A stretch of 64,000 nt of DNA from an uncultured Actinomycetes bacterium. Lineage in GTDB: Bacteria > Chloroflexota > Dormibacteria > Aeolococcales > Aeolococcaceae. The translations under genes were made by a program, and so were the position numbers. The DNA lies in assembly GCA_964499205.1 (NCBI GenBank), contig CAZCJX010000006.1:2533-66532 (forward strand), written 5' to 3'. Positions 19,453 through 54,452 of the stretch are shown here, piece by piece; positions within the stretch are counted from its first letter, which is position 1, and every line of letters starts with the position of its first letter. The notes beneath the pieces were generated by a model that searched no databases, was not told the origin of the DNA, and worked only from the letters and a program-made list of their open reading frames with translations.

Positions 19453-19492
19453 GACTGTCTCCTTCTGTGGCGGCGGGTTCGGCGCGGGAAGG

Positions 19493-21981: not shown

Positions 21982-21982
21982 G

Positions 21983-22871: not shown

Positions 22872-22885
22872 TGACAACGTTGATA
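22872..22885. promoter_or_regulatory. Putative LacI-family operator 1 (TGACAACGTTGATA)
   Basis: 2 mismatches to TGACAACGTTGTCA; intergenic, upstream of the phyH-4CL-oxidoreductase-GH3 unit. Confidence 0.65.
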
Positions 22886-22932
22886 TAGCCGCTGCCTGCC
22901 TGCCGGCCGCTGAGGTCGACAGGCCAGCCTGG

Positions 22933-23994
22933 TCAGCCGGCCGCATGCGGCCCCCACGCCGGGTCCGGCGGCCGGCAGCGCACCACGTCGAGAGCACCGC
23001 GCAGCACGGCGTCGCCGGCTCCCCAGGGCATCAGGACCGTCATGCCGCGACGCAGCCGCAGCGTGCGACCCTCGGCGTCAGTGAGTTCGCCCTCGCCCTC
23101 GACGACCACCAGCACCGAGAAGCCTGCGTCGAGCGTCACACCCGCTCCGCCCACGATCCACTCGGCGCGGAAGAACTCATCCGCCTCCGCGGGCAGCAGG
23201 CGGCGGCCGCCCCGACCTGGATTGGGGCCACGGAGTCGCCGGAGCCGGTCGGCATCCCAGCCGGAGCGGTCGACGCACCGCAGGGCGACGTCGTAGCCCA
23301 GCTCGAGGTGGCCGTCACGGGCACCGTCGAGCGCATAGCCCTCCCACTCCAGGAGCACGCTCAAGTCGGCGGGCTCCTGCAGCTCGACGATCAGCAGGCC
23401 CTCGCCGATGGCATGCGGCAGGCCGGCGGGCACCAGGACGGCGTCACCGGGCTTGACCGGCAGTCGGTTCATCACCCCGAGCAGCGCGTCGGTGTCCTGC
23501 CGGCGGACCCAGGCGGCGAGCTGGTCGCCGTCGACGGCGCGTCGGAATCCGAGGTAGACCGACGGGTCCTCGCCGGCCGTCTCCACGATCACCCAGGCCT
23601 CGGTCTTGCCGTGGCGGCAGTCGAGGTGGCTGCGCGCGAAGGCGCGGTCCGGATGGCAGTGGACCGGCAGACGCTCGCCCGCGTCGATCAGCTTCACGAG
23701 CAGCTCGGTGTCCACACCGAAGCGGCGGACGTGCGCCGGGCCCAGCCACGCCTCGGGATCGGCGGCCACGGCATCGCGGAGAAGCACGCCACCGTCGAGC
23801 ACGGTCGGTCCCACCGACGGCATCCCGAAGCGGCTCACCGTCGCGGCCACCCAGTCCTCGGGCTGCCGCTCCCCGGCGTCGGCGATCCCGCGCAGCTGCG
23901 AGATGGCTCGGCCACCCCGATAGAAGTGTTCCACGAGGTTGGCGCCGAGCACGATCGGGGCGGACGGGGCCACACTGACAACGTTGTCGGCCAT
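22933..23994 (-). CDS. manA: Class I mannose-6-phosphate isomerase (cupin)
   Basis: LLVKLIDAGERLPVHCHPD, GKTEAW, VPAGLPHAIG, ELQE. Start set at ATG 23994 (GTG 23973 possible) because a promoter lies at 24003-24032. Confidence 0.8.
   Translation of the reverse strand: MADNVVSVAPSAPIVLGANLVEHFYRGGRAISQLRGIADAGERQPEDWVAATVSRFGMPSVGPTVLDGGVLLRDAVAADPEAWLGPAHVRRFGVDTELLVKLIDAGERLPVHCHPDRAFARSHLDCRHGKTEAWVIVETAGEDPSVYLGFRRAVDGDQLAAWVRRQDTDALLGVMNRLPVKPGDAVLVPAGLPHAIGEGLLIVELQEPADLSVLLEWEGYALDGARDGHLELGYDVALRCVDRSGWDADRLRRLRGPNPGRGGRRLLPAEADEFFRAEWIVGGAGVTLDAGFSVLVVVEGEGELTDAEGRTLRLRRGMTVLMPWGAGDAVLRGALDVVRCRPPDPAWGPHAAG
23976..23989. promoter_or_regulatory. Putative LacI-family operator 2 (TGACAACGTTGTCG)
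   Basis: 1 mismatch; between divergent manA and lacI, 14 nt downstream of the manA -10. Confidence 0.75.
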
Positions 23995-24002
23995 GGCCGA
24001 GG

Positions 24003-24032
24003 AGTGTGCCATGGCCAGCCGGGAGCCGTCAA
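24003..24032 (-). promoter_or_regulatory. Putative manA promoter
   Basis: TTGACG-N18-CACACT on the minus strand; places the TSS at about the ATG 23994 (leaderless candidate). Confidence 0.5.
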
Positions 24033-24127
24033 CACCAGCGCCGCCGGGCTCCGTCATGGCGAATCCCATTGGCGGGTGTGGCACAGTCACCGGAAGCTAT
24101 CGCGGGACCAGGGGATGAGGAGGCACA

Positions 24128-25141
24128 GTGACGAGCGGTGCACGGCAGGGAAGGGTGATGTCGGGTCGCCCGACGATGCGTCACGTCGCCGAGGCGGCGG
24201 GTGTGAGCATCAAGACGGTGTCCCGCGTCGTCAACGGCGAGAACGGCGTTGCCGTCGCCACGGCGGCGCGCGTCATGGAGATGATCAGGCAGCTCGACTT
24301 CCAGCCCAACGAGCTCGCCCGCAGCCTGCGCCCCGGCCGCGCCTCGGCGACGCTGGGACTGGTCATCGGCGACATCTCCAACCCCTTCTACGCAACCATG
24401 GCCCGCGCCATCGAGGCGGTGGCGCGCAGCCACCAGTACCTGCTGGTCACCGGGAGCAACGACGAGGACCCCGCCGTGGAGGAGGACCTCATCCTTGCCT
24501 TCTGCCGCCGGCGCATGGAGGGGCTGATCGTCGTGCCGACCGGTGACGACCTCGGGTACATTCGCCGCGAGGCATTGGCGGGGACGCATTTCGTGTTCGT
24601 CGACCGGCGCCCGGCGCGTCCGGACGGGGACAGCGTGGTGATCGACAACGTCCGCGGCGCGCAGCTCGCCGTGGAGCACCTCGTCGCCCAGGGACATCGC
24701 CGTATCGCAATGCTCGGAGACGAGCCGCGGCTGGGGACCATGGCGGAGCGGCTCGAAGGCTATCGCACGGCCATGCACGCCGCCGGTCTCGCGGTCACCG
24801 ACGACATCCTGCTCCTCAGGCACCACAGTGCCGCCAGCGCCGAGACGGCAGTTCGCGTCGCCCTCGGACTGCCCGACCCGCCCACCGCCTTCTTCGCCTT
24901 CAACAACCTGCTCATGCTCGGCGCCGTGCGCGCGGCGCGCGCCACCGGCCGTGACATCGGCATCGTGGCCTTCGACGACTTCGACTTCTCCGACATGCTT
25001 CCCATGCAGGTCGGCATCATCCGCAACGACGCCACGGAGATGGGGCGGCAGGCCGCTGAGCTGCTGTTCGCGCGGCTGCAGGGCGACACGCGGCCGCCGC
25101 AGCACGTCGTGCTGCCCGTCGAGCTGGTGATGCGCGGCTAG
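24128..25141 (+). CDS. LacI family transcriptional regulator
   Basis: HTH TMRHVAEAAGVSIKTVSRVVNG, hinge PNELARSL, sugar-binding domain (DISNPFY, IDNVRGA, AFDD). Start GTG 24128 (AGGAGG SD) or ATG 24158. Confidence 0.95.
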   Translation: MTSGARQGRVMSGRPTMRHVAEAAGVSIKTVSRVVNGENGVAVATAARVMEMIRQLDFQPNELARSLRPGRASATLGLVIGDISNPFYATMARAIEAVARSHQYLLVTGSNDEDPAVEEDLILAFCRRRMEGLIVVPTGDDLGYIRREALAGTHFVFVDRRPARPDGDSVVIDNVRGAQLAVEHLVAQGHRRIAMLGDEPRLGTMAERLEGYRTAMHAAGLAVTDDILLLRHHSAASAETAVRVALGLPDPPTAFFAFNNLLMLGAVRAARATGRDIGIVAFDDFDFSDMLPMQVGIIRNDATEMGRQAAELLFARLQGDTRPPQHVVLPVELVMRG

Positions 25142-28100
25142 GGCCGCACCAGGAGCGTGCGGATCTCCCACGCGCGCAGCGCGATGTCCACGGCGCCTTC
25201 CTGGTTGCTGAGCTGGTCACCCTCCTCCTCGAGGATGTTCGCGGCGTGGACGCGAGCCCCTGACGGGAGGCCGCACAGTAGGACCTGCGCACTGCGGCCC
25301 GTCGCCTCGTAGAGCCGGACCGCGATGCCCTCTCCGGCGTTGACGCGCTTGAGGCTGGAGATCAGCACACCCTCGTCGCCTTCCAGACGTGGGCGCCAGC
25401 CTGTGTGCGGTTCCGCGTGCGGCCCGCTGGCAACGCGTGCCAGCAACGGCTGGTTGAAGCCGGCCGCCATCTCGGGGATGCGTGCACTGCGCCAATCACC
25501 CGGATGCGGCACGAGGCTGTACTGGAACTCATGGTGGCCGGTGTCCGACTCCCTGTCCGGCGAGTACGCGTTGCGCAGCAACGTCAGTCGCAGCCGTGAG
25601 CCGAGGGCGTCGTAGCCGTACTTGGACTCGTTGAGGATGGCGACGCCGTACTCCGGCGTCCCCACGTCGGCCCATCGCTGCGCGTTCTGCTCGCGTCCGT
25701 CGGCCGGCCGGCGGGCGGCACCGAACGGCGTCTCGTACCACGCCTGCGCGCCGTCGATGGTGGCGTTGAAGCTCACCTTGAGGTTGGGGATGCCGATCTC
25801 CGGGCCGCACGGCTCGTTCCAGTCCACGGTCGTCTGGAAGTCGATCCGGGCAAGCTCAGAGTAGAAGTGAATGCGCTGATGCAGCGTCGAGGAGCCGAAC
25901 GGGACCTGCACGGCGAAGACCGCACACACCGGGCCCGTCGCCAGCAGCCTCGCGCTTGCGTTGCCGCGCAATGTCTCCTCGCGCTTGACGCGCCCGATGG
26001 CCCAGGCGGCCATCCCGTGGGGTTCCTCATGAATCAGTTGAAAGACGTTCAGCGCGAGGTCCGAGCGCACCTCGTCGTCGGGATCGCCCCAGCGCCAGGT
26101 CGCGGGACCGACGAGCTGTCGGCCGACGCGCTTGTCGACGAGCGACAGGATGACGCCGCTGTCCGGGCGCATACGCGCCTCGAAATGCGGCGTGTCGATG
26201 ACCAGGTAGGCGTCCCCGGGCACGTTGTACCAGAGCGCTCTCTCAGTGCGAACCGACACCACAGAGCTCGCAGCGTCGTCGCCCTCGACGATCTGATACG
26301 CGGTGGTGCCGAAGGCGGGCACCGTGGCGACGAACAGCAGCCGTTGGTCCACCACCTGGGCGGGCGACGTGGTGCCGTCGGCGCTGCGCACGGCCGGCGA
26401 GTCGGGAAGCGGTCCGTGCAGCTCCGCGACGGGCACGCAGACCAGGTCGGTGCGGTCGAACCCGAGCGGATTGGTGACGGCGATGCGCCCCGCCTCGATG
26501 CCCGCGTGGAGGACGTCGAGGGCCTCGGCGGTGACTCTCTCGGCGGTGGTGCGCACCTCGTCGAAGTCGCGCCCGCAGTCCTGGTATGTCCCCCGGATCG
26601 CAGTGCCGCAGATGATGTCGTGGAACTGGTTGAGCAGGATCTTCCGCCAGCTCTCGCGCAACTGCGCGACGCGGTCGAGGCCGGCCAGCGCGGACAGGGC
26701 CTCCGCCGTACCGAGAAGGCTCTCGCCATGGCGGTTCCACCGCTTGATGTCGGCGTGCGTCGTGTAGCAGCCCTCCCAGAGGAGGTCGGTCTCGCCGTGG
26801 TGCACCGGCAGCTCAACGCCAGAGGCGAGCACCGCGTCCGCGTAGGCGGCGATGGTGCTGCATTCCGCGGCCGGCATCACCGGTGTGTTCTGCAGGCGAC
26901 GAAGCGCGTCGAGCCCGTAGCGCGTCGGGCCGCCGCCGTGGTCGACGGCACCATGCCACCACATCACGTGATCGTGGCCGCGTTCGACGCCGAGCTTGAT
27001 GGCGGCGTCGGCCAGCTCGGTGGCGGTGAGAAAGCCGCCGTACACCGGGTTGGTGACGGCGAGCACGCGCGCACCCTCCTGGCTCTCGAACCAGTAGGCG
27101 GGCCAGGTGGAACGCTCTCGGTTGCCCGGGTTGGCGCGGTGGTGGTAGTAGAGCTTCGCGCCTGCCTGCGCCGCAAGCTGCGGCACCTGACCCGCGTGAC
27201 CGAAGGTGTCGGGGGCCATGAACAGGGAGGGCTCGACGCCGAGGACCTCGCGCGTGTAGGCGACACCCTCCTGCAGCTGCCGGGCGTGCGACTCGCCGGA
27301 GGGGATGTTGCTGTCGGTCTCCACCCACTGCATGGTCCCCACCTCCCAGCGACCCTCGCGGATGTAGGCGAGCACCTTCTGGAAGAGCTCCGGCTCGTGC
27401 TGGCGGATGATCTCGTAGGTCACAGGCTGGCTGTGCACGAAGCGCAGCTCGGGATAGTCCTCCATCATCGACAGCACGCTGCGGACGTCGCGGCGGACGA
27501 CCTCGACGGTGTCGGGCCAGGTCCACTGCCAGTTGATGTCGATGTGGCTGTGTCCGATGACGTGGACGTGCAGGGACTTGGCGCGCGCGTCGAAGCGGCC
27601 GAGCTCCCGTGCCACCGCATCGAGGGCGGGCTGCAGCACGTCGTCGGATGCGGTGAGGTCGTCGGGAACGAGGGCGGCCGCGGCAGCCAGCGCGTCCCGA
27701 TCGGCGTCGTCCCGCGCCAGGGCTGTGGCCAGGCGCAGCTGCGCCAGCGCGAGGTCGAGCATCTCGAAGCGACGCTGCAGGCCGGGGGTTCCGAATGTCA
27801 GCAGGTTCCAGCCCGGTTCCAGCTGCGCGTCGGGCGCGCGGATCACCAGGCGCAGCGTGCCGTTCGAGCCGTTGGCGATGTGGGGGAGGACGTCGATGAG
27901 CGCGGCGCCACTGGCGGCGACCGGAGTGCTGTCGTCGAGGATCACCAGCTCGCCGACCGACAGCGTCATCGGGTACAGCGACTCGATGGTCATCTGCAGG
28001 GCGTCGCCGCCGAGCGTGACGCCCTCGATGGCCTCGGGCAGGTCCAGTTCGAGCTCCAGCTCGAGACGCCGCCCCGGCTCCAGGACCAGGCCGTCGAACG

Positions 28101-28278
28101 CCGCCATCGGCCGGAAGCGGTCGGTGCGGATCATCGGGACGAAGTCGGGACCCGGCCCGGCCACGCGATTCCAGCCCCGCGGCAGCCACCCGAGCCGCAC
28201 CTTCTCCGCGGCGGCGGCGAGGTGCTCCATCGCCTCGGCGGGCGTTCGCCGCGCCGCGGCCGTTTGGCTCACGGTCAT
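25138..28278 (-). CDS. GH38 alpha-mannosidase with N-terminal extension
   Basis: HVIGHSHIDINWQWTW (Zn-binding HxD), E.D.NIPSGES.ARQ, PDTFGH (nucleophile Asp), GAVDHGGGP, NQFHDIICG, NESKYGYD. Confidence 0.93.
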   Translation of the reverse strand: MTVSQTAAARRTPAEAMEHLAAAAEKVRLGWLPRGWNRVAGPGPDFVPMIRTDRFRPMAAFDGLVLEPGRRLELELELDLPEAIEGVTLGGDALQMTIESLYPMTLSVGELVILDDSTPVAASGAALIDVLPHIANGSNGTLRLVIRAPDAQLEPGWNLLTFGTPGLQRRFEMLDLALAQLRLATALARDDADRDALAAAAALVPDDLTASDDVLQPALDAVARELGRFDARAKSLHVHVIGHSHIDINWQWTWPDTVEVVRRDVRSVLSMMEDYPELRFVHSQPVTYEIIRQHEPELFQKVLAYIREGRWEVGTMQWVETDSNIPSGESHARQLQEGVAYTREVLGVEPSLFMAPDTFGHAGQVPQLAAQAGAKLYYHHRANPGNRERSTWPAYWFESQEGARVLAVTNPVYGGFLTATELADAAIKLGVERGHDHVMWWHGAVDHGGGPTRYGLDALRRLQNTPVMPAAECSTIAAYADAVLASGVELPVHHGETDLLWEGCYTTHADIKRWNRHGESLLGTAEALSALAGLDRVAQLRESWRKILLNQFHDIICGTAIRGTYQDCGRDFDEVRTTAERVTAEALDVLHAGIEAGRIAVTNPLGFDRTDLVCVPVAELHGPLPDSPAVRSADGTTSPAQVVDQRLLFVATVPAFGTTAYQIVEGDDAASSVVSVRTERALWYNVPGDAYLVIDTPHFEARMRPDSGVILSLVDKRVGRQLVGPATWRWGDPDDEVRSDLALNVFQLIHEEPHGMAAWAIGRVKREETLRGNASARLLATGPVCAVFAVQVPFGSSTLHQRIHFYSELARIDFQTTVDWNEPCGPEIGIPNLKVSFNATIDGAQAWYETPFGAARRPADGREQNAQRWADVGTPEYGVAILNESKYGYDALGSRLRLTLLRNAYSPDRESDTGHHEFQYSLVPHPGDWRSARIPEMAAGFNQPLLARVASGPHAEPHTGWRPRLEGDEGVLISSLKRVNAGEGIAVRLYEATGRSAQVLLCGLPSGARVHAANILEEEGDQLSNQEGAVDIALRAWEIRTLLVRP

Positions 28279-29708
28279 CAGGACCCGACCGGCAGCGGGC
28301 CGAAGCAGGGGAGGGGCAGCCCATGATCGTCCGTCCCGGCCAGCTGCGGCATGAAGCGTGGGCCGTGGACGAGGCGGTCGCTGGGGTCGACCGGACCGTC
28401 GAAGGTCAGCTCGATGGCGTCCGCGGTCACCCTCGCCTGGGCCGGCACGCGGACATGGTTGGCGGCGTCGCGCAGCTCGAAGGCCCGCGTGATCTCAGGG
28501 TTGGGGGTGAGCCGGCCGTTGACCCCGGTGAGGAGCACTCGAACCGTGCCGCTGGCGGCGTCTGAGCCGTCGATCCGCGCCACGTCCGGTGTGGTTCCCT
28601 GGCCGCGCAGCGCCAGTGCGGCGCGCGCCAGGCGCCGGCCCAGCTCCCACTGACCATCTGCCGAGACGTGCCCGAAGTCGTACTTGGGCAGGTCGGCGGC
28701 GACGGCGATGCGGATCCTCGGGTCGCGCGCCGGCAGCGTGCGGATCTGCTCGCGTACCGTCTCCCAGCAGTAGACGGTCTCAGGCTTCTCGATCTGCTGC
28801 CAGCGTTCGTCGGAGGTGTCGACGCTGGAGATCTGGACGACGAGGGCGGGCAGGTCGGGAACGCCGAGCTCGCGACGCACGTCGTTGAGGAATGCGAGGA
28901 AGCGCTCTGCGTAGGTCTCGGCGGCGCCGGCAGCGCTGTCCGCCTCGCCCTGGTACCAGGCCAGGCCGGACGTCGCCCCGGTGTGCCGGCCGCGCCAGAT
29001 GAGGTTCCAGAACAGGCTTCCCGAGGGGTCGTCGGGTCCGGCATTGGCGTCGCCCCACGCCTTGGTCCAGAGCTCGAGCGAGGTCGAACCCAGCGCGGTG
29101 GGCACCAGGCCCACGGGTCTGCCGGTCAGCTCGATGAGCGCGGAGGCAAAGCCGAGCCCCGGGCCGACGCCTCCGCCCGCCTGCTCCGGGGTTCCCTTGA
29201 TCCGCTCGAACTCCGCGTCGATCCACTCCCGCGACTCCGGGTACATCACCGGGTGGATGCGCAGCTGAACCGAGTTGCGGTCCTCCCAGATGCGGTGCAG
29301 AGGGTCGCGCGCCTCCTTCCAGGTGCGGTCCACGCTGAACATGCGGGCCAGCGGAACGCTCTTCGCGTCGGGCGTGGCCAGCTCCGCGCCCTGCATGTTG
29401 GACTGGCCACCGAGCAGCCAGACCTCGCCGACCAGCAGATCCTCGACGACCAGGCGGTCGGAGCCGATCTCGACAGAGACGGTGTACGGTCCGCCGGCTT
29501 CGAGGTCCACCTCGATGGCATTGCCGACGGCACGGTGCGCCACCGTGTGGCTGTCACTGGCCCCGCCGGCAACCATGACGCGAGCGGCGCCCAGGTCGCC
29601 GCCGCCCTCGACGGTGAAGCGCACCGTGCCGCTCCCGGATGCGTGCGCCTGGACGACGGTGGACGCCTGTGGACCGCTGATGCGGCGGCGGGTCGGTACC
29701 TCAGCCAC
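28278..29708 (-). CDS. SGNH sialate O-acetylesterase / carbohydrate esterase family
   Basis: VGEVWLLGGQSNMQG, PVGLVPTALGSTS, WYQGEAD, D..H (KYDFGH). Confidence 0.85.
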   Translation of the reverse strand: MAEVPTRRRISGPQASTVVQAHASGSGTVRFTVEGGGDLGAARVMVAGGASDSHTVAHRAVGNAIEVDLEAGGPYTVSVEIGSDRLVVEDLLVGEVWLLGGQSNMQGAELATPDAKSVPLARMFSVDRTWKEARDPLHRIWEDRNSVQLRIHPVMYPESREWIDAEFERIKGTPEQAGGGVGPGLGFASALIELTGRPVGLVPTALGSTSLELWTKAWGDANAGPDDPSGSLFWNLIWRGRHTGATSGLAWYQGEADSAAGAAETYAERFLAFLNDVRRELGVPDLPALVVQISSVDTSDERWQQIEKPETVYCWETVREQIRTLPARDPRIRIAVAADLPKYDFGHVSADGQWELGRRLARAALALRGQGTTPDVARIDGSDAASGTVRVLLTGVNGRLTPNPEITRAFELRDAANHVRVPAQARVTADAIELTFDGPVDPSDRLVHGPRFMPQLAGTDDHGLPLPCFGPLPVGS

Positions 29709-30732
29709 GGGAGATCACCTCCGCGAGCGCCCGCCACGTCGCCGACTCGGTGCCGTCCGGCTTGACGAGCCACAGACCTGGGCAGCCATGTGGCTGGCGC
29801 TCGCACTCGTTGTCGTAGACCTGCCAGAAGATCGCGTAGGGGCAACCCCAGTCCAGGGCTTCGACCGCCATCCGCGCGCTGATGGCGGCGCCGGCCTCGT
29901 CGCCGATCGACTCCAGCCAGCCCAGCCGGCGCTCGGGATACCCGAACTCGCCGAGGAAGATGTTGTTGCGGCCGAACGCTTCCGAGGGTGCGCAGTGGGC
30001 GGCGATGAACTCGAGACGGTCGATGAGGTCGTCCGGTCCCGGCCAGTCCCAGACGGAGTACGAGTACAGGTCGCAGCGCAGGTGCGGCAGCACTTCGGTG
30101 GTCAGCTCGGCATTCCCATCCATCGCACTCTTGACCAGGTTCACCTCGGCCGCATTCCAGACGCGGACGTCACTGTCGGGCGTCGCGGCTCGCCCCTCCT
30201 CGACTCCACGCTGGCGCGCCATCATCCAGCGTGAGAAGCGATCCATGGCATCGCGCGGAGCGAATCGCTCACGATCGGTGTGGCCGCGCACCGCCCAGTC
30301 ACCCTCCCAGTTCTGCAGCACGAAGGTCTTGCCGGTCCCGTTCAGCGTCTGCCGGAGGTGCATGGTGAGGTCGCGAAACTCGGTGACCTCAGCCTGCTCG
30401 TCCTCGTCGCTGAAGCCGCGCTGCCAGTACCCGTTGTCGTCGGGCACGGCGCGGAACGCCTCCAGGACGTAGGTGGTGAAGGGCATCGAGAACACCTCCT
30501 GGAAGCGCGGCTCCTTGGCCTGCTCGGTGAGCGAGGTGATGTGCGGCCAGAGCGCGTCGAACCGGTAGCTGCGCTCGGGATGGCCGTCGAACCAGAGCTT
30601 GATCACCGACGAGCCCAGGCGCCGAATGTCCCTGGCACCTGACAGCAGGAAGCTGCCCGTTCCGGGGTGGTAGCAGCCGGAGGCGTGCGTCACTCCGAGC
30701 CGTTCGCTGATGGGCGGCGTGCTCAATGACAT
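29701..30732 (-). CDS. Uncharacterised protein, candidate clan GH-A-like glycoside hydrolase
   Basis: ATG 30732 overlaps the upstream gene's end; 'VLQNWEGDW', 'LYSYSVWD', 'IFLGEFGYPE', 'FWQVYDNE' resemble acid/base and nucleophile strands of a TIM barrel. Confidence 0.55.
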   Translation of the reverse strand: MSLSTPPISERLGVTHASGCYHPGTGSFLLSGARDIRRLGSSVIKLWFDGHPERSYRFDALWPHITSLTEQAKEPRFQEVFSMPFTTYVLEAFRAVPDDNGYWQRGFSDEDEQAEVTEFRDLTMHLRQTLNGTGKTFVLQNWEGDWAVRGHTDRERFAPRDAMDRFSRWMMARQRGVEEGRAATPDSDVRVWNAAEVNLVKSAMDGNAELTTEVLPHLRCDLYSYSVWDWPGPDDLIDRLEFIAAHCAPSEAFGRNNIFLGEFGYPERRLGWLESIGDEAGAAISARMAVEALDWGCPYAIFWQVYDNECERQPHGCPGLWLVKPDGTESATWRALAEVISRG

Positions 30733-32420: not shown

Positions 32421-32501
32421 CGGTCGCTCAACCCCGAAGCCTCATGCGATGGTGTCACCTCCGTCCTCCTGCAGCCTCCTGGCGAACGGGGGCCGTCCGC
32501 G

Positions 32502-32531
32502 ATTCTTCGCCGCGGGCGACATCGTTGTCAA
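32502..32531 (-). promoter_or_regulatory. Promoter for the SBP operon with operator 3 (32517-32530, CGACATCGTTGTCA) over the -35
   Basis: Minus strand TTGACA-ACGATGTC-N10-AAGAAT. Confidence 0.7.
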
Positions 32532-32551
32532 GAGCCGTCGCGGAGCGGCGT

Positions 32552-32588
32552 TGACAACGTTGACATGGGGTGGCCGGCCGCCGATAAT
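32552..32588 (+). promoter_or_regulatory. Promoter for the beta-helix gene with operator 4 (32552-32565, TGACAACGTTGACA) over the -35
   Basis: TTGACA (32560-32565)-N17-GATAAT (32583-32588). Confidence 0.8.
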
Positions 32589-32642
32589 GGCGCCGCTCGG
32601 TTCGTGCCGACGCCGCAAGGAAGCGTTCAGGAGGTGTCCAGC

Positions 32643-34865: not shown

Positions 34866-34884
34866 GTTTCGGCGTTGACGGGCG

Positions 34885-34938
34885 TTGACATTGGGGGTCC
34901 CCGCGCCTACACTCAGGACGGCGTAGACAACGTTGTCA
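34885..34938 (+). promoter_or_regulatory. Promoter of the 35-52.8 kb operon with operator 5 (34925-34938, AGACAACGTTGTCA)
   Basis: TTGACA (34885-34890)-N17-TACACT (34908-34913); palindrome just downstream of the predicted TSS. Confidence 0.85.
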
Positions 34939-35002
34939 TAAGGTTGGGAGTCGCGCTTTGCGCCAGCAGATTCACGGGAGTCGCGCGCATGCGACACGGG
35001 CG

Positions 35003-42360: not shown

Positions 42361-42372
42361 AGACAGCTCCCC

Positions 42373-46487: not shown

Positions 46488-47554
46488 GAGAGATGAGCGC
46501 GATTCGCCGGGTGGCCGTCGCCGGCGCGCTGGTCAGCCTGTGCGGCTGCGGCCTCAAGCCTCCGCAGCAGTTCGGTGCCCACCCCTACCCGCAGGACGTG
46601 CAGCTGGGTGCGCAGACGTCGCCGACGTCGGTCCCGGCACCGCTGGCCAAGGGCGCCAACATCGAGCCCGGCACGCCGGGCTTCCTGGTGCCGCCGATCC
46701 CCTCGGCGCCGAGCACCTTCACGCCCTTCGCCTTCGCACCGCCCACGCCGCACCCCTGCCCGACGGCCGACCCGCTGGCGCCGCTCAGCGACCAGGCGGC
46801 CGCCGACGTGCAGGCGGCGCCGAAGCCTGGCGTCTACCACTACCGTCAGTCCGGCAGCTATGCGCTGAAGGGCAAGCCCGCGGTGGCCTACCCGCCGAGC
46901 GTCGACATCACCATCGGCCAGTCCTACGTCGGACGCATCGTCGCCCAGGGCCAGCACGACCCCACCGACACGTCGATCTACTGGGACCAGACGGAGAAGT
47001 CGATCGCCCCCAACGGGTGGGTGGACGCCACTATCACGTACACGTTCCGCCTGTCGCACACCAAGGGAACTCCGCCGCTCTCCCAGGACAGCGGTGAGAT
47101 CGACATCTACGCGGTCACCGTGCAGACCGCGAATGGCACCGACACCTTCCAGCCACAGGGTCCCGACCCCGCACCGATCGTGCTGCTGCCGGCAACCGGT
47201 CAGCCGTCGTGGAACGACCAGTCGGTCGACGGTCTGCACCAGGAGACGTTCGACGACGCTGCCGGCTACCACGGCGAGAAGGACCACGTCGATGCCTGCG
47301 GCAAGCTCATCGACGCCTACCGGATCGACCTCGGTCCGCTGGAGCCGGCCACCGGCACCGGGACACCGACCAAGACGCAATCCAGCTTCCACTACGAGAC
47401 CAACAGCACTCTCGACTACAACATCGACGGGTGGTACGACATCGCCACCCAGGACGGTGGACTCGTGGTCGCCGAGCACATCACGGAGACGGCGATCGAC
47501 GGGAGCTGGACCAATGACCGCACCCTGACCATCAACTCGGTGCAGCCCGGCTGA
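46484..47554 (+). CDS. Hypothetical lipoprotein
   Basis: ATGA overlap; IRRVAVAGALVSLCGC lipobox; Pro-rich linker, then a beta-rich domain. Confidence 0.75.
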   Translation: MREMSAIRRVAVAGALVSLCGCGLKPPQQFGAHPYPQDVQLGAQTSPTSVPAPLAKGANIEPGTPGFLVPPIPSAPSTFTPFAFAPPTPHPCPTADPLAPLSDQAAADVQAAPKPGVYHYRQSGSYALKGKPAVAYPPSVDITIGQSYVGRIVAQGQHDPTDTSIYWDQTEKSIAPNGWVDATITYTFRLSHTKGTPPLSQDSGEIDIYAVTVQTANGTDTFQPQGPDPAPIVLLPATGQPSWNDQSVDGLHQETFDDAAGYHGEKDHVDACGKLIDAYRIDLGPLEPATGTGTPTKTQSSFHYETNSTLDYNIDGWYDIATQDGGLVVAEHITETAIDGSWTNDRTLTINSVQPG

Positions 47555-48807
47555 TGCGCTGGCTGAGTCGCATGGCGATGGTCCTGCTGGGCAGCACGCT
47601 GCTCTCGGGTTGCGGCGCTGCCTTCGAACTGCCGCAGGGACCGGACGCGAACAAGCACCTGGTGGCGAGGATCCTCGTCGACCTGCCGCCGGAGCTCCGT
47701 CCCGCGGCGCAGCTGGCCATCGACGACATCAACCGGCTCCATCCCAGCGAGTTCGAGCAGACCACCGTCGTGGCCGTCTACGCCGACGACACCTTCGAGG
47801 GACAGATCGACACGGGCACGGCCAAGACACACCTGCACGACCGCCTCGACGACGGCACCATCCTCGGCATGGTCGGCCCGTACAACCTGCAGCTGGCGCG
47901 CGCGCTGCTGCCGATCGCCAACCAAGCGGATCTTCCCGTGTTCAGCCCCACGCTCACCGACGAGTGCCTCACCCAGCAGGAGAGCTTCTGCACTCGCGGC
48001 GAGCCCAACTCGCTGCGTCCGCACAACGCCAGGGCCGGGCAGCCGGGTGACCTCACCTTCTTCCGCGTGCCACCGGTGCAGGGCAGGCAGGCCAAGGCGG
48101 CAGCGGACTATGCCTCGGGGGCGCTGGCGAAGAGCAACGCCTTCCTGGTCGTCGACAACACTCCGGTGGCAACGCGGATGGCCGACGACTTCACCGCGCA
48201 ATGGCAGCTCCAGGGTGACACGATCGCCGGCAGAGCCTCCGTCGACACCGCCGCCAGCCCGGACCTCAACCTCCTGGCGGGGCAGATCCAGGCGGCCAAG
48301 CCTGACGTCGTCTACCTGGCCACCACGGATGAGCCCGCCGTCGCCCACCTCGGCGGGTTGCTCAGCGGCCACGGGTCGCTGCCGCTGATCGTGCCGGACG
48401 CGCTGCACACCACGCAGATGGCCGAGGCCGCGCAGAGCTGGACCGGAGCGCAGCTGCTGGTCACGTCTCTGAGCGGCGATCCGTCGCTGGTCTCCGCCGA
48501 ATTCGAGCACGAGTGGGCGGGGCTGCATCGCGGCGATGCCCCGCCCTACGCGCTGGAGACGTGGCTGGCGACGAACGCACTCATCCAAGCCATCCGGACC
48601 GGCAGCCAGGTCCTCGTGGAGCAGCAGGTGACGGCCATTCCAAGCCGGGACGTGGTCGACGCCGCGGTGCCCACCATCCAGGTGCCAACCGACGACCTCA
48701 ACGGTCTGCATTTCGACAGCCATGGCGACAACGGGAGTCAAATCGTGACGATCTTCACTGCCAGCAAGGGACGCTGGACGTCCCCCGCCGAACAGCAGGC
48801 GGCGTGA
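47554..48807 (+). CDS. Branched-chain-type ABC substrate-binding lipoprotein
   Basis: LLSGC lipobox; 'AAQLAIDDIN', 'LGMVGPYN', 'TFFRV', 'KPDVVYLA'. Confidence 0.85.
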   Translation: MRWLSRMAMVLLGSTLLSGCGAAFELPQGPDANKHLVARILVDLPPELRPAAQLAIDDINRLHPSEFEQTTVVAVYADDTFEGQIDTGTAKTHLHDRLDDGTILGMVGPYNLQLARALLPIANQADLPVFSPTLTDECLTQQESFCTRGEPNSLRPHNARAGQPGDLTFFRVPPVQGRQAKAAADYASGALAKSNAFLVVDNTPVATRMADDFTAQWQLQGDTIAGRASVDTAASPDLNLLAGQIQAAKPDVVYLATTDEPAVAHLGGLLSGHGSLPLIVPDALHTTQMAEAAQSWTGAQLLVTSLSGDPSLVSAEFEHEWAGLHRGDAPPYALETWLATNALIQAIRTGSQVLVEQQVTAIPSRDVVDAAVPTIQVPTDDLNGLHFDSHGDNGSQIVTIFTASKGRWTSPAEQQAA

Positions 48808-51344
48808 CCGTGGCAGCACCGAGCGAGCGCAGGCTGAGCCTCGACGGGAACGACTGGCAGGTGCTGGGTCTGGTTCCCGGCTTCCGGAGATGGCACCGCA
48901 TCGGCGCGGCGGAGGAGATCCAGGCACCGTCGATCACCGGCTGGATCCCCGCCACCGTTCCCGGTCACGTGGTCGCGGACGTGGTGGCAGCCGGCATGGC
49001 CCCCGACCCGTACACCGCCCTCAACAGCCTTGCCGCGGAATGGATCGCGCAGCGGGAGTGGGTCTACCGCCGCAGCTTCACCGTGCCCGCCGGCTTCCGC
49101 CGCGAGCGCGTCGTTCTCCACTTCGAGGGCGTCGACGACGCCTGCAAGGTCTTCCTCAACGGGTGCGAGCTCGGCAGTCACGAAGGGATGAACCGCGCCT
49201 TCGAGTTCGACGTGTCCGAGCACCTTCGCGACGGCGAGAACGTCGTCTCGGTCGCGCTGGAACAGGCGCCGTTCGAGCCGGACATCCAGGCGCAGCTCGG
49301 CAACACGCGCGACGTGCGCACGTGGAAGGTGCGGTTCACCTACTGGTGGGACTTCTCCACGCGCCTGGTGAGCACCGGCATCTGGGACAGCGTCTGGCTG
49401 GAGGCGCGTTCGGAGGCGTCGCTGCGCGATCTGTGGACCCGGACCGAGCGCACCGGCGACGGCTGGCAGCTCGAGGTGCTGGGCAACGTCGACGGCAACG
49501 GCGGCGACCTCGAGCTGGCCGTGGAGCTGAAGGACGGCGACCGTGTTGTTGCGCAGAGCCAGACGCGGGTCAGCACCGGCCCGGTGCGCCTTGCGATGCC
49601 TGCGCCGGGCGTCGATGTTTGGAACGTCAACGGATGCGGCGAGCAGCGCCTCTACCGCGCCGCGGTCGAGCTGCGCCGCCGCTCCGGCGAGGTGCTGCAC
49701 ACCGCCGCACTCCCGGTGGGCTTCCGAACCATCGAGTTCGAGCGCACGCCGGGGGCCGGCGAGGACGCGCTGCCGTACCGGGTGGTGGTGAACGGCCGTC
49801 GGATCTTCATCCGCGGATGGAACTGGGTTCCCGTCGACCAGCTGTACGGTGTCCTCCGTCCCGAGCGCTACCGCAACCTCATCGACCACGCCAAGGCCGC
49901 GGGCTGCAACCTGCTGCGGGTGTGGGGTGGTGGCCACCTCGAACGAGAGCTCTTCTACGACCTGTGCGATGAGGCGGGAATCCTGGTCTGGCAGGAGTTC
50001 ATCCAGTCGTCGTCGGGCGAGGACTCGCAGCCTGCGACCGACGCCGAATACCTCGAGTACATCGCGGCGCAGGCGGAGGCCATGGTGACGCGCCGGCGCA
50101 TGCACCCCTCGCTGGCGATCTGGTGCGGCGGCAACGAGCTCGCCGTCCATCCCGAGCGGACGCCGCTGTCGACGTCGCATCCGGCGGTGGGGGTGCTGCG
50201 CGACGTCGTGGCGCGGTTGGACCCGGATCGGCTCTTCCTGCCCACCTCGCCGTCGGGCCCGCGCTTCGATCTGATGAAGGAGGGCGGCGTCCCCGGCCAC
50301 GACGTGCATGGCCCCTGGCACTTCACCGGCGACGGCGAGTACCACCGTTTCCACGACCGCAGCGAGCCGATGCTCTACTCCGAGTTTGGCGCGGTGGGCA
50401 CCTCCGACCTCGACGCGCTGGAGCGGTACATGCCGGGCGCGCATTGGCCGCCGGACTGGACCAACCGGACGTGGGTTCACCACACGGGCTACTGGTGGAT
50501 CGACATTCGCGACGTGGAGCCGCTCTTCGGTCCGCTCCGCGAGCCGATCGAGTACGTCCGCGCCGGACAGTGGGTGCAGGCACACGCCCTGGCCTACGCC
50601 ATCGAGGCGCAGCGGCGCCGCGAGGACCATTGCGCCGGTGTCATCCCCTGGCAGCTCAACGAACCCTGGCCGAACGGTGCGCAGACGAACGCCGTGCAGT
50701 ACGGCGGCCGTGCCAAGCCGGCGTACTGGGCGGTGGCCCGGGCGTACGCGCCGCTGCTCATCTCCGCAGCGTTCCGGGGCATCAGGTGGGAGCCCGGTGA
50801 GGAGTTCACCGCGGCCGTGTGGGGCTCGGGTGCAGTGCCGGCGGGATGCACCGCACGCTGGACCATCACCGATGTCGGTGACGGAAGCGTGCGTCACGAG
50901 CAGGCGGTCACCATCGAGGGCGGCACCGGCCTGGCACAGCGGGTCGGAGCGTGCACGTGGACCATCCCGCAGGAGCCGACCCTGTGGGCCCTCGACCTTC
51001 ACATCGAGGACGGTGATGGCGGAGTCGTCGCCTCCAACCAGTACCTCTTCTCGAGCTTCGCCGAACCGCCGCTGGCGCCACTGCTGCGGTGCAGGCCGGG
51101 GCGCCTGTCGGCGGTCAGGGACGCCAGCGGAGACCTGCACGTCTCCGCGGAGGGCGCGCCGATCATCGGCGTGCGCGTGTACGCGACCGACGGCAGGCCC
51201 GGCCCCGGGGTCGGCGCCGGCTGGATCGCCGCGCTGTTCCCGGGGCGGCCGGTATCCGTGGGACAGCGACCCGGCAGGGAGATCTGCGTATCGGCGTGGA
51301 ATGCACCGGACATCGCCCTCGCACCGAGACCAGAAGGAGACTGA
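48804..51344 (+). CDS. GH2 beta-mannosidase-like glycosidase
   Basis: 'WIPATVPG', 'FEGVD', 'RGWNWVPVD', 'LRVWGGG', 'YDLCDEAGILVWQEF', 'WCGGNE' (acid/base), 'SEFG' (nucleophile), 'WQLNEPWP'. Confidence 0.9.
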   Translation: MTVAAPSERRLSLDGNDWQVLGLVPGFRRWHRIGAAEEIQAPSITGWIPATVPGHVVADVVAAGMAPDPYTALNSLAAEWIAQREWVYRRSFTVPAGFRRERVVLHFEGVDDACKVFLNGCELGSHEGMNRAFEFDVSEHLRDGENVVSVALEQAPFEPDIQAQLGNTRDVRTWKVRFTYWWDFSTRLVSTGIWDSVWLEARSEASLRDLWTRTERTGDGWQLEVLGNVDGNGGDLELAVELKDGDRVVAQSQTRVSTGPVRLAMPAPGVDVWNVNGCGEQRLYRAAVELRRRSGEVLHTAALPVGFRTIEFERTPGAGEDALPYRVVVNGRRIFIRGWNWVPVDQLYGVLRPERYRNLIDHAKAAGCNLLRVWGGGHLERELFYDLCDEAGILVWQEFIQSSSGEDSQPATDAEYLEYIAAQAEAMVTRRRMHPSLAIWCGGNELAVHPERTPLSTSHPAVGVLRDVVARLDPDRLFLPTSPSGPRFDLMKEGGVPGHDVHGPWHFTGDGEYHRFHDRSEPMLYSEFGAVGTSDLDALERYMPGAHWPPDWTNRTWVHHTGYWWIDIRDVEPLFGPLREPIEYVRAGQWVQAHALAYAIEAQRRREDHCAGVIPWQLNEPWPNGAQTNAVQYGGRAKPAYWAVARAYAPLLISAAFRGIRWEPGEEFTAAVWGSGAVPAGCTARWTITDVGDGSVRHEQAVTIEGGTGLAQRVGACTWTIPQEPTLWALDLHIEDGDGGVVASNQYLFSSFAEPPLAPLLRCRPGRLSAVRDASGDLHVSAEGAPIIGVRVYATDGRPGPGVGAGWIAALFPGRPVSVGQRPGREICVSAWNAPDIALAPRPEGD

Positions 51345-51345
51345 G

Positions 51346-52149
51346 TTGAAGCCGATGCCCACCGACAGCTTGGTGGTGGAGCTGGACCCGGACCAGATCG
51401 CCTTCTTCAAAGAGAACGGGTACTTGCAGATCGAGCGCATCACCACCGATGCGGAGATCGAATGGTTGCGCGACGTGTACGACGAGCTCTTCGTCCGCAA
51501 GGAGGGCCAGTACTGGGACCTCGCCGGCAAGATGGGGCACAAGGGGGAGAGCGACCTGCCACAGATCGTCGGCCCGGAGGAGACCTATCCGCAGCTGCTG
51601 GAGACGGTGTACGTGCGCAACACACGCCGTGTGGCCCGGCAGCTGCTCGGGGTGGGCGACGACGTAGAGCTCGACGTCTTCGGTCATATGATCCTCAAGC
51701 CACCGCGTCACGGCGCAGAGACGCCGTGGCACCAGGACGAGGCGTACTGGCCGGCGGGCTACCGCTACGAGGGCCTGTCGGTGTGGATGCCGCTCGACGA
51801 CGCGACCGTCGAGAACGGGTGCATGCAGTTCGTCCCCGGCACGCACAACCACCGGGTTGTGCAGCATCGCCACATCAATGACGATCCCACCGTGCACGGC
51901 CTCGTCACCGACCAGGTGCAGCCCGAGGGCGCCGTCGCATGCCCCATCCCAGCCGGAGCGGCGACGGTCCACCACTGCCGCATGCTGCACTACGCAGGTC
52001 CCAACCGAACGGGCAGCCCGCGCCGCGTCTACATCCAGAGCTTCACCGCGCCGGTCGAGAAGCTCGAGGGCGTCGAGGAGCGGCCGTGGCTGGTGGAGCA
52101 CGAGGTTGCCGTCGCGGAGCAGAGGTCGCGTGAAACGGGAGGGGGTTGA
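51346..52149 (+). CDS. PhyH family Fe(II)/2OG dioxygenase, copy 2
   Basis: TTG 51346 after AAGGAG; 'TPWHQDEAYW', 'WMPLDDAT.ENGCMQFVPG', 'HHCRMLHYAGPN...RR'. Confidence 0.88.
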   Translation: MKPMPTDSLVVELDPDQIAFFKENGYLQIERITTDAEIEWLRDVYDELFVRKEGQYWDLAGKMGHKGESDLPQIVGPEETYPQLLETVYVRNTRRVARQLLGVGDDVELDVFGHMILKPPRHGAETPWHQDEAYWPAGYRYEGLSVWMPLDDATVENGCMQFVPGTHNHRVVQHRHINDDPTVHGLVTDQVQPEGAVACPIPAGAATVHHCRMLHYAGPNRTGSPRRVYIQSFTAPVEKLEGVEERPWLVEHEVAVAEQRSRETGGG

Positions 52150-52183
52150 GACGCCCCCCGGGCGGACCGATGACGGTCACGCC

Positions 52184-52792
52184 GTGCGGCGAAGGAGCAG
52201 CGTCGCCCTATGCGTCACCGCCGTCGTGCTCGCGGTGTTGCTGTCCGCGTGCGGCGAAGGAACCGGCGGCGGAGGAGGGGCGGCCTTTCCTCCGCCCAGC
52301 CAGGTCCTCCTGACACGGCTCCCCGCCGGACTGCCGCAAACGCTGGCGGTCAGTCATGACCTGGCCCAGAGCGACCTCGACAGCGCGACCCCGGCCGATC
52401 CCGCCACGGTGGACGGCTTCCTCTCGCACTCCTCGTTCAACAGCGCGTCGGTTCGCATCTGGACCCAGGGCAGCAACTACGTGACGTTGCTGGCCGTCGC
52501 CTTCGACCACACCGGCGACGCCACGCGGATGGTGCAGACCGTGGTCGACAACCTGCAGGCGTCGGTCAATACCTACGTCACGCCGCACCAGGGCCTGCCC
52601 GGGTCCTACACGTTCGTCATCAGCGGCAACACCAGGGCGGCCGCCAAGAACGTGATCTGCGAGGGAGTGTGGCTGCCCGACGGCCACTACGCCATCGAGA
52701 CGCTCACCTGCAGCGATCTCGGCGCTTGGGCAACGCTCGCCGAGGAGCTCGCCAAGCAGGAGAGCGACCGGGTCAAGGCGGTCGCCGCCTGA
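52184..52792 (+). CDS. Hypothetical lipoprotein
   Basis: RRRSSVALCVTAVVLAVLLSAC lipobox; start uncertain (GTG 52130 possible). Confidence 0.65.
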   Translation: MRRRSSVALCVTAVVLAVLLSACGEGTGGGGGAAFPPPSQVLLTRLPAGLPQTLAVSHDLAQSDLDSATPADPATVDGFLSHSSFNSASVRIWTQGSNYVTLLAVAFDHTGDATRMVQTVVDNLQASVNTYVTPHQGLPGSYTFVISGNTRAAAKNVICEGVWLPDGHYAIETLTCSDLGAWATLAEELAKQESDRVKAVAA

Positions 52793-52795
52793 TCG

Positions 52796-54286
52796 TCAGT
52801 CGCGAGGCCGGGTGGCGGCGATGCGGTGGACGAGAGGGCGGGTTGCGTCGTACAGCTCGTGGAACATCGCGTACTGCTCGTCGTACAGCGGCTTGATCCG
52901 CGGGTCGGGCGACACCACGTGGTGGATGCGCGGCCAGGCGAAGGGATCGGCGGCGGTGCCGGCCGCACACGCAGCGAGCATCGCGTCTCCGTAGCTGGCT
53001 CCGACGGTTACCTCGGGGACGTCCTGCTCCACACCGGTCACATCCGACATCACCTGGAGCCACGTGTCCGTGGTCGTGCCGCCGCCGACCGCGACGACGC
53101 GCTCGATGGGCGTGCCGGCGCGTGCGTATGCCTCGAACATGTGCCGCGCCGCGAAGCCGGTTGCTTCCAGCGCGCTGAGGAACAGATGGCCACGCGTGTG
53201 CGCCAGGGTCAGCCCGCAGAAGATCCCGCGCGCGTCCGGGTCGTGGTCGGGCCGGCGCTCGCCGGCGAAGTAGGGCAGCGTCAGCAGCCCGTCGCTTCCC
53301 CGGGTGAGGGCTGCCGCCTCCGCGAAGAGCGTCTCGAACGAGGTCGAGGTGAGGTCGCGCACCCATGCGGTGAGCCCACCCCCGGAGGCGAGACCCGACG
53401 CCAGGCCCCAGGTGCCGGGCAGGACACCGCTGGTGGCCCAGAGGCCGGGAGCCCGTACTGGGCGCTCGGTCACCTGCACGATGAACAGAGCGGTGCCGTA
53501 CATGAGCATGGTGGCCCCGGGGTCGCGCACGCCGACGCTGAGTGCCTCCGCCCACGCGTCGATGGTGCCGGCGATGACCGGCGTTCCCGCGGGAATCGCG
53601 CACTGCGCCGCCGCCTCCGTCGAGACGCGACCGACGACGTCGCCGGGCCACACCAGCTCCGGCATCTCGATGCGCGGGGCGAGGAGCGCCGTCCACGGTT
53701 CGTGCCAGCGCTGGCGCTCGATGTCGTAGAGCGGATCGCACTGGCTCGCCGAGTGATGGTCGAGGATGTACGCACCGGTGAGCCGGTGAACGAGGAACGA
53801 GCTGGCCATGAAGAAGCGGCGGGTGCGATGCCAGACCTCGGGCTCGTTCTCGCGGAGCCACACCATCTTGGGGCCGACGGCCTGACTCGACAGCTCCGAC
53901 CCGCCGACCGCGACGATGCTCCTCTCGCCGAGCTCGGCGGTCAGCTCGTCGACCTGCCGCGCGGCTCGCGTGTCGACTCCGTACAGGATGGCGGGACGCA
54001 GCGGCTGACCCGATGCGTCGGTGGGCAGGAGGCACGGCCCGATGCCGCTGACACCGACTCCTGCCAGGTCGCCTCTCCAGCCGTGCAGCAATTCGCCCGT
54101 CACCTCGGCGAACTCAGCCCACCAGAGACACTCGGCGTCCTGCTCGAACCAGCCGTGCAGCGGGTTGGAGGTGCGATGGGGGCGCTGCGCACGCGCGACG
54201 ATGGCACCGTCTTCGCTGACCAGCACACCCTTGGTGCTCGACGTGCCCACGTCGACGCCGATGAAGCAGCGCGTCTGTCCGCTCAT
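52796..54286 (-). CDS. FGGY-family carbohydrate kinase (xylulokinase-like)
   Basis: IGVDVGTSSTKG, 'PAILYGVDTR', 'GTIDAWAE', 'LPYFAGERRP', 'AVGGG'. Confidence 0.92.
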   Translation of the reverse strand: MSGQTRCFIGVDVGTSSTKGVLVSEDGAIVARAQRPHRTSNPLHGWFEQDAECLWWAEFAEVTGELLHGWRGDLAGVGVSGIGPCLLPTDASGQPLRPAILYGVDTRAARQVDELTAELGERSIVAVGGSELSSQAVGPKMVWLRENEPEVWHRTRRFFMASSFLVHRLTGAYILDHHSASQCDPLYDIERQRWHEPWTALLAPRIEMPELVWPGDVVGRVSTEAAAQCAIPAGTPVIAGTIDAWAEALSVGVRDPGATMLMYGTALFIVQVTERPVRAPGLWATSGVLPGTWGLASGLASGGGLTAWVRDLTSTSFETLFAEAAALTRGSDGLLTLPYFAGERRPDHDPDARGIFCGLTLAHTRGHLFLSALEATGFAARHMFEAYARAGTPIERVVAVGGGTTTDTWLQVMSDVTGVEQDVPEVTVGASYGDAMLAACAAGTAADPFAWPRIHHVVSPDPRIKPLYDEQYAMFHELYDATRPLVHRIAATRPRD

Positions 54287-54422
54287 CTGCCGGTGCTCGA
54301 TCCTGGAAGCGGGCGGTCCTCGGCGTCGACACGCGGCTGGTCGACCGAGAGAGCAGCAGGCTGGGCCACGAGTCCTTCCTTGGCTGATCCATGGGCCTGC
54401 CGTGGGCCCACGCCGGGCGGCC

Positions 54423-54452
54423 ATTCTGGCGGAGCCCTGACATCGTTGTCAA
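54423..54452 (-). promoter_or_regulatory. Promoter of the FGGY kinase with operator 6 (54438-54451, TGACATCGTTGTCA) over the -35
   Basis: Minus strand TTGACA-ACGATGTC-N10-CAGAAT, same layout as 32502-32531. Confidence 0.75.

Follow-up and report, generated by a model that had tools for sequence, protein, structure and literature searches.

Among the compiled LacI-family regulons, 93% comprise no more than 20 genes and most operator sites lie 30–140 nt upstream of a start codon; a central CG is found in 1173 of 1303 motifs, and 72% of the regulators are autoregulated (PMC4052901). Here we describe a locus of this type in a 64,000-nt stretch of DNA (the window, to which all unprefixed positions refer) from an uncultured bacterium deposited as Actinomycetes and placed by GTDB in the Aeolococcaceae (Chloroflexota; Dormibacteria). 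The window (positions 2,533–66,532 of contig CAZCJX010000006.1, or C6:2533–66532 in our numbering) belongs to a 3.7-Mb draft assembly (GCA_964499205.1) of 368 contigs that is 83% complete and has a G+C content of ~70%. It encodes a LacI-family regulator (24128–25141, plus strand) and contains six copies of a 14-bp palindrome, TGACAACGTTGTCA. As judged from the arrangement and distribution of these copies, they very probably constitute the operators of this LacI, through which six transcription units would be co-repressed until a sugar releases them.

Palindromic sites and promoter-like sequences

Searching the window for TGACAACGTTGTCA with up to two mismatches returned six matches, compared with 0.10 expected from dinucleotide-preserving shuffles, none of which contained more than one. 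They coincide exactly with the six sites of the original prediction, which had been compiled by eye (22872 and 32517 with two mismatches; 23976, 32552, 34925 and 54438 with one). The CG centre and both half-sites are conserved in six of six, and all six are even, CG-centred, upstream palindromes of the form by which LacI/GalR operators are recognized. At the same threshold, the whole assembly yielded 12 matches; the six outside the window equal the number expected over 3.7 Mb from the window's chance rate, and each is located inside an open reading frame (ORF) with coding-type codon-position G+C (GC3 bias). A palindromic position weight matrix (PWM) built from the six window sites and scanned over the genome assigned them 21.8–27.7 bits and the rest of the genome at most 18.3 bits, except for two intragenic matches in a GT2 and a histidine kinase gene. 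These two (C36:10402, in the 'DDNVV'/DxD region of the GT2, and C60:10962, in the histidine-kinase N-box) were considered as extra operators and rejected as intragenic. The fear that inspection by eye had missed sites proved unfounded, as the PWM added none to the window at 13 bits or above, weaker candidates before the GH2, PBP6, MoxR and PfkB/SGL genes included. Nor did the motif occur in coding sequences genome-wide at a similar frequency, the finding that the original prediction had named as speaking against it: matches outside the window stay at chance level. The sites are restricted to one 32-kb stretch of the genome. Three same-genus genomes without the local LacI hold 1, 10 and 9 scattered matches, respectively, and the motif was not found in the searchable literature.

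With respect to genes, operator 1 (TGACAACGTTGATA, 22872–22885) lies in the 110-nt gap between the stop codon of a phosphomannose isomerase (PMI)-like gene (22933) and the ATG of a gene for a PhyH-type dioxygenase, PhyH1 (22822), 50 nt upstream of the latter. Operator 2 (TGACAACGTTGTCG, 23976–23989) is situated at the 5′ edge of the PMI-like gene itself (minus strand), either 3 nt upstream of GTG 23973 or, if translation begins at ATG 23994, within codons 2–6, and 139–169 nt upstream of lacI. Operators 3 (CGACATCGTTGTCA, 32517–32530) and 4 (TGACAACGTTGACA, 32552–32565) precede two divergent genes, the former 97 nt upstream of ATG 32420 of a solute-binding-protein-like gene (minus strand) and the latter 78 nt upstream of ATG 32643 of a beta-helix protein gene (plus strand). 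Operator 5 (AGACAACGTTGTCA, 34925–34938) is found 20 nt upstream of TTG 34958 (plus strand), and operator 6 (TGACATCGTTGTCA, 54438–54451) 152 nt upstream of ATG 54286 of an FGGY kinase gene (minus strand). That all sites mark gene 5′ ends, as had been claimed, is borne out by these distances of 20–152 nt to the likely starts, with site 2 on the edge of its gene.

A consensus scan placed four of the operators at sigma-70-like promoters. Operator 3 holds the −35 element of the minus-strand pair TTGACA-18-AAGAAT (32531–32502), operator 4 that of the near-consensus plus-strand pair TTGACA-17-GATAAT (32560–32588; 11 of 12 matches), and operator 6 that of the minus-strand pair TTGACA-18-CAGAAT (54452–54423); operator 5 starts 12 nt past the −10 element of the plus-strand pair TTGACA-17-TACACT (34885–34913). 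Shuffles of the scanned regions contained only 0.0–0.2 such pairs, and all four real ones are linked to an operator. At site 2, a minus-strand pair identified by eye, TTGACG (24032–24027)-18-CACACT (24008–24003), falls under the scanner's threshold; the operator follows 13 nt later, in the same geometry as at site 5. The earlier statement that five sites overlap or directly follow a −35/−10 pair therefore holds for sites 3, 4, 5 and 6, extends to site 2 only through the pair seen by eye, and fails for site 1.

As four sites supply or adjoin TTGACA, one might take the repeats for chance occurrences or merely for a repeated strong −35 element devoid of regulatory function. This is so improbable as to be negligible, given that conservation in all six sites covers the central CG and the half-site on either flank, that sites 1, 2 and 5 do not act as −35 elements, that shuffles never approached the count of six, and that the palindrome turns up again, in full, next to lacI homologues of other phylogenetic groups.

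The regulator and the distribution of its probable motif

The lacI gene starts at GTG 24128 or, more typically of the family, at ATG 24158. Its product has a LacI-type N-terminal helix-turn-helix (HTH) domain (PF00356, 54.8 bits against a cut-off of 27, residues 16–61) and a C-terminal effector domain of the type-1 periplasmic-binding-protein type (PF13377, PF00532, PF13407), with full-length alignment to RbsR and CcpA structures; its best relatives in the PDB are RbsR, CcpA and PurR. The best NCBIfam model, of the RbsR type, gives 177 bits where 382 would be needed, and no equivalog of a named regulator was reached. The hinge helix reads 'ELARSL', and in the alignment QPNELARSLRPG falls on the hinge of both RbsR and PurR. 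In the PurR and LacI structures, the hinge leucine contacts the central CpG. Since the protein ends at residue 337, without a C-terminal tetramerization segment, DNA looping between operators is not expected.

To connect motif and regulator, every fetchable locus encoding a LacI 47–59% identical to the local one, an identity range in which the protein collection holds many homologues, was included in a footprint set of seven distinct loci, five of them metagenomic contigs. In seven of seven, the same palindrome either covers the lacI start or is no more than 120 nt away from the gene. In Nonomuraea maritima (L001), AGACAACGTTGTCA lies 57 nt before the aligned lacI start, accompanied by two further sites, one of them before a CUT2 ATP-binding cassette (ABC) transporter operon, and in Streptomyces lunalinharesii (L039) a site 112 nt upstream of lacI lies between it and a divergently oriented gene for a ROK kinase. 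Among the metagenomic contigs, L033 carries a site 81 nt upstream of a lacI-PMI-FGGY-DUF6259-PhyH-PhyH-GFO/IDH operon, L034/35, L036 and L037 have sites on the lacI start codon and before an upstream ABC ATPase gene, and L038 a site 53 nt upstream of lacI. By comparison, none of 26 loci with LacI paralogues of at most 37% identity has the motif near lacI. This contrast (7/7 vs. 0/26) amounts to the phylogenetic footprint expected of LacI/GalR operators. Four paralogous copies of the transporter cassette described below, in same-genus genomes, were likewise without a site.

The PMI-like gene recurs in these loci as well: the local protein is 52–59% identical to the product of the gene beside lacI in L033–L036, and the PMI-like cupin is, by these alignments, a conserved genomic partner of this LacI subfamily. 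A further trace of the operators is preserved in protein records. Four tetrapeptides derived from translated operators (DNVV, TTLS, TTMS and DNDV) are confined to the first 45 residues, where 16 of 121 PMI-like and 10 of 120 LacI homologues contain one; the remainder of the ~36,000 residues of each set has none. This implies that gene callers in many relatives have read through operators at the 5′ edge of lacI and PMI-like genes. Accordingly, database calls for many PMI-like and LacI homologues (P0122, P0143, P0144, P0154; P0010, P0017, P0021; and others) begin before the true start.

In Actinomycetota metagenomes, we noticed an eight-gene cluster (L034–L038 and one more locus) that encodes an ABC ATPase, LacI, the PMI-like cupin, a CUT2 permease, a CUT2 solute-binding protein, a PfkB kinase, a DeoC-type aldolase and a GFO/IDH oxidoreductase. 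It looks like a self-contained pathway for monosaccharide catabolism putatively governed by the same motif; a literature search on this conserved cluster returned nothing relevant.

Several observations weigh against assigning the six sites to a regulon of the local LacI. No orthologue of the regulator was found among 60 related genomes, the best match being 37% identical, and the genes regulated in the footprint homologues match those of the present locus only partly, a PMI-like gene being common and glycosidases not. At sites 1 and 2 the consensus scan detects no canonical promoter, and site 1 is without any comparable pair. Moreover, T plus the half-site TGACA is the −35 consensus itself, so the overlap with promoters is partly inherent in the motif; the same doubling of half-site and −35 element would also be how such an operator achieves occlusion. 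Finally, 17% of the genome is unassembled and could harbor more sites or a closer LacI paralogue.

The incompleteness of the assembly, together with the resemblance of LacI-family motifs to one another (the generic TGnnAnCGnTnnCA is seen in the CcpA cre, too), leaves room for a different protein binding the palindrome, with the adjacency of lacI being coincidental. The only other LacI-family gene in the assembly, C1:82420, encodes a protein 31% identical to the local one and with a different recognition helix (VSVATASRALSG vs. VSIKTVSRVVNG in the local LacI), and the genome-wide PWM scan places no site near it. As all seven loci with homologues of the local LacI have the motif and the surroundings of distant paralogues lack it, binding by this paralogue or by a regulator in the unassembled portion is highly unlikely. 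The assignment of the motif to the local LacI appears to be about as secure as sequence analysis allows.

The sites as such, their specificity within the genome, where they stand with respect to genes and promoter-like hexamers, and their co-occurrence with the LacI subfamily elsewhere lead us to infer binding, repression rather than activation, operon extents and an effector in the following manner. A LacI dimer would engage each CG-centred 14-bp site through its HTH and hinge helix and, at four of the sites, exclude RNA polymerase or block it right after initiation (occlusion or roadblock). A sugar or derivative arising from the substrate of the locus would then bind to the C-terminal domain, causing the repressor to leave the DNA and the six transcription units to be expressed together. 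The predicted targets include enzymes (GH38, GH2 and GH3 glycosidases, a beta-helix enzyme, an esterase, the PMI-like isomerase, an FGGY kinase, oxidoreductases and dioxygenases) as well as, for transport, a LIV-type ABC importer cassette and two solute-binding proteins. Whether lacI itself is among them is uncertain, because its nearest operator is 139–169 nt upstream and forms part of the promoter of the divergent gene; in the relatives, where the operator is 50–110 nt upstream of lacI or covers its start, autoregulation is likely.

Probable transcription units behind the operators and predicted extent of the regulon

Genes were mapped by combining codon-position G+C, ORF lists and Pfam/NCBIfam matches. 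On the minus strand behind operator 1 (putative unit 17014–22822), PhyH1 (21983–22822) is followed by an AMP-dependent ligase (20404–21981), a GFO/IDH/MocA oxidoreductase (19493–20407) and, beyond a 170-nt gap, a GH3 glycosidase with a PA14 domain (17014–19323). Owing to this gap, we are less sure that GH3 belongs to the unit; orthologues 81–83% identical to it exist in same-genus genomes without the local LacI. The GH3 reading frame is open to 19527 and yet offers no ATG, GTG or TTG upstream of 19323, and the Pfam GH3 N-domain is matched from profile position 84 onward. The alternatives are a protein with a short N-terminus and the use of an unusual start.

Operator 2 fronts the PMI-like cupin gene (22933–23994 or 23973, minus strand; PF21621, PF07883). 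The original prediction called it manA, and the gene does belong to the class-I PMI family as far as profile and structure matches tell, its substrate being predicted: TIGR00218 scores 68 bits, under the cut-off of 116, and the protein aligns with the Bacillus subtilis PMI (PDB 1QWR, E = 7e-17), including the HPD and GKTE(A)W motifs. Most PMI-like homologues start two residues before a P-[VI]-x-L motif, which here follows operator 2 by ~20 nt. The protein on record comprises 374 aa from ATG 24057, and the homologues point to ~346–353 aa.

The unit behind operator 3 (25138–32420, minus strand) consists of four genes overlapping by 1–10 nt, which marks it as a clear operon ending with GH38. Its first gene (30723–32420) encodes a membrane-anchored, 565-aa, type-1 periplasmic-binding-protein-like protein, which Pfam does not match directly; the homologues either contain PF13458 or go by the name 'type 1 periplasmic-binding domain', by which we consider it a solute-binding protein. 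Next come an unclassified 343-aa protein (29701–30732), which matches nothing in Pfam or NCBIfam up to E = 1 and is without a paralogue in this genome, and, both recognized by Pfam, a SASA-type carbohydrate esterase (28278–29708) and a GH38 alpha-mannosidase (25138–28278). The GH38 and lacI genes are convergent, with a 4-nt overlap of the stop codons (25138–25141), meaning that transcription of the long GH38 operon meets the end of lacI head-on.

Downstream of operator 4, a secreted right-handed beta-helix protein (32643–34865, plus strand; PF13229) resembles the lacto-N-biosidase LnbX in its N-terminus (NF047897, E = 6e-27, residues 22–122 only). Operator 6 precedes a XylB-like FGGY sugar kinase (52796–54286, minus strand; PF00370, PF02782; TIGR01312 at 293 bits, under the cut-off of 380). 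The divergent gene beyond it, for an Amidohydro_2 protein (54604–55833, plus strand), was left out of the targets as doubtful, having its own TATAGT −10 element ~95 nt downstream of the operator. This element (54546–54551, 52 nt upstream of the amidohydrolase ATG) is part of an AT-rich island (54515–54560) within the otherwise ~70% G+C genome, in which arms GGGCCCTTT and AAAGGCCC surround TTAATCTATGTCTAAGATATATAGTA. The island could give the amidohydrolase gene a promoter of its own and might also be bound by another regulator.

The largest unit would be the one behind operator 5, an 18-kb array of 13 co-directional genes (34958–52792, plus strand; assigned by Pfam/NCBIfam and ORFs). It begins with two lipoproteins, followed by a fused LivH/LivM-type permease (35928–38210), an MFS-like domain fused to LivF and LivG ATPase domains (38207–41329), MoxR (41326–42360), DUF58 (42373–43668), a 693-aa protein, two lipoproteins, a Peripla_BP_6 solute-binding protein (47554–48807), a GH2 with a beta-mannosidase-type N-domain (48804–51344), a second PhyH dioxygenase, PhyH2 (51355–52149), and a further lipoprotein (52184–52792). 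Most junctions overlap or abut (35563/35584, 35928/35934, 38207/38210, 41326/41329, 46484/46487, 47554 and 48804/48807), and the largest gap is at most 160 nt (45700–45861). The promoter at operator 5 is the only sigma-70-like plus-strand pair in 34.8–54.7 kb; on this strand of the array, the consensus scan disclosed no other promoter-like pair, nor was an intergenic terminator detected. At its far end, GH2 and PhyH2 have no operator of their own according to the PWM scan. The array would accordingly be read as a single transcript, through which the distal genes would belong to the regulon.

Parts of this array recur as a cassette (solute-binding-protein-like protein, fused LivHM permease, MFS-LivF-LivG fusion, MoxR, DUF58 and following genes; here 30723–32420 plus 35928–48807, elsewhere L040–L043). 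Same-genus genomes contain at least five paralogous copies each, at 65–75% nucleotide identity, and the present genome several. In the relatives, the solute-binding-protein-like gene is immediately upstream of the permease gene, whereas in the present locus it is found on the other strand, having been relocated to the head of the GH38 operon. The fusion protein is in itself unusual in layout: 1040 aa with an MFS_1-like membrane domain (residues 77–407) and LivF/UrtE-like and LivG/UrtD-like ABC ATPase domains; the same fusion is found in paralogues encoded on contigs C94 and C37 and by same-genus genomes.

Together, the units behind the operators tile 17.0–54.3 kb and comprise ~24 genes. The proposal of a LacI regulon over ~17–54 kb is supported by the motif following the LacI subfamily and being confined to the locus, by the single and dissimilar other LacI, and by the operon-like packing of the genes. 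It is possible, if doubtful, that the operators are real and the regulon is far smaller, with only directly following genes responding and the array and GH3 being served by promoters of their own. Actinobacterial promoters often lack a recognizable −35 element and internal ones may have escaped the consensus scan; the 160-nt gap within the array and the 170-nt gap before GH3 could hold promoters; the permease-ATPase-MoxR-DUF58 cassette and GH3 are present in same-genus genomes without LacI or motif; and the compiled regulons are mostly of 20 genes or fewer, as mentioned above (PMC4052901). The overlapping or abutting junctions, the lack of a second promoter-like pair or intergenic terminator detected in the array, and the sugar-related nature of the distal GH2 and PhyH2, which have no operator nearby, argue instead for the full extent.

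As for the inducer of this LacI, a mannoside-derived effector is a tentative guess, held with less than even confidence and prompted by the presence of GH38, the beta-mannosidase-type GH2 N-domain and the PMI-like gene in the locus. Mannose, a mannose phosphate, an oligosaccharide and an unrelated sugar fit the observations alike. An alternative scheme, in which the GFO/IDH reductase, dioxygenase, kinase and PMI constitute a 1,5-anhydrofructose/anhydromannitol pathway, was dropped, since a literature search provided no genetic support. If the whole array is indeed co-repressed, the cassette, including its transglutaminase-like protein and lipoproteins, might conceivably be a new type of machine for the uptake or processing of glycans or sugar derivatives, and not an amino-acid transporter; in that event, its operator-controlled copy would offer a handle for finding the cassette's substrate.

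Comparison with described LacI-type systems

A LacI repressor with palindromic operators before sugar genes is in itself textbook biology, and, going by the sequence-level hallmarks of the class, all of which were found, the present system is of the standard LacI/GalR-type repressor-operator kind, typical in form and large in size. Its interest derives from what it connects. It would provide a well-supported regulator-operator pair for an uncharacterized LacI subfamily found widely in Actinomycetota metagenomes, in whose genomes the 14-bp motif is now usable for regulon prediction. It groups ~24 genes, several without a family assignment, into one putative co-regulated unit for glycan utilization, a grouping that offers the best hint so far as to what they do. 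It would also connect the use of carbohydrates with the LIV-type ABC/MoxR/DUF58 cassette, puzzling in itself and present in multiple copies.

The closest described counterparts are the local LacI sugar regulons that comparative genomics has reconstructed (RegPrecise), including the mannose- and mannoside-related 'ManR' groups (Ravcheev et al. 2014, PMC4052901), which share with this locus an even, CG-centred palindrome, comparable site distances, a regulator inside the controlled locus, and glycosidase, transporter and catabolic targets. With ~24 predicted targets, the present regulon would rank among the largest 7% of LacI regulons, and its transporter is of the LIV/HAAT type with MoxR and DUF58, as opposed to CUT1/CUT2 or the phosphotransferase system. 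The likeness to the ManR groups is one of gene content alone (GH38, GH2 N-domain and PMI-like gene). Compared with its own relatives, the locus combines regulator and isomerase with GH38, GH2, GH3, an esterase, a beta-helix enzyme and a transporter that differs from their CUT2 systems.

E. coli LacI with lacO and PurR with the purF operator employ the same HTH and hinge, the leucine of 'ARSL' inserting at the central CpG; their operators overlap the promoter or lie just past the start site and a small ligand mediates induction, and the same is predicted here. Unlike E. coli LacI, the present regulator has no tetramerization helix, and six operators would serve six units in place of one operon. 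The CcpA/cre system of Firmicutes (TGWAANCGNTNWCA) has nearly the same 14-bp layout, and CcpA is among the best structural matches; however, CcpA acts globally and requires HPr-Ser-P, whereas the sites described here are confined to their single 32-kb stretch. In actinobacteria, CebR/CelR (TGGGAGCGCTCCCA) are LacI-family repressors of polysaccharide loci with several operators before the glycosidase and ABC operons of one substrate, and an oligosaccharide product acts as inducer. The present locus resembles them in having a LacI-family repressor whose several putative operators front glycosidase and ABC-transporter operons, and differs from them in its half-site (TGACAA vs. TGGGAG) and in its substrate set, represented by GH38, GH2, GH3, the esterase and the PMI-like isomerase.

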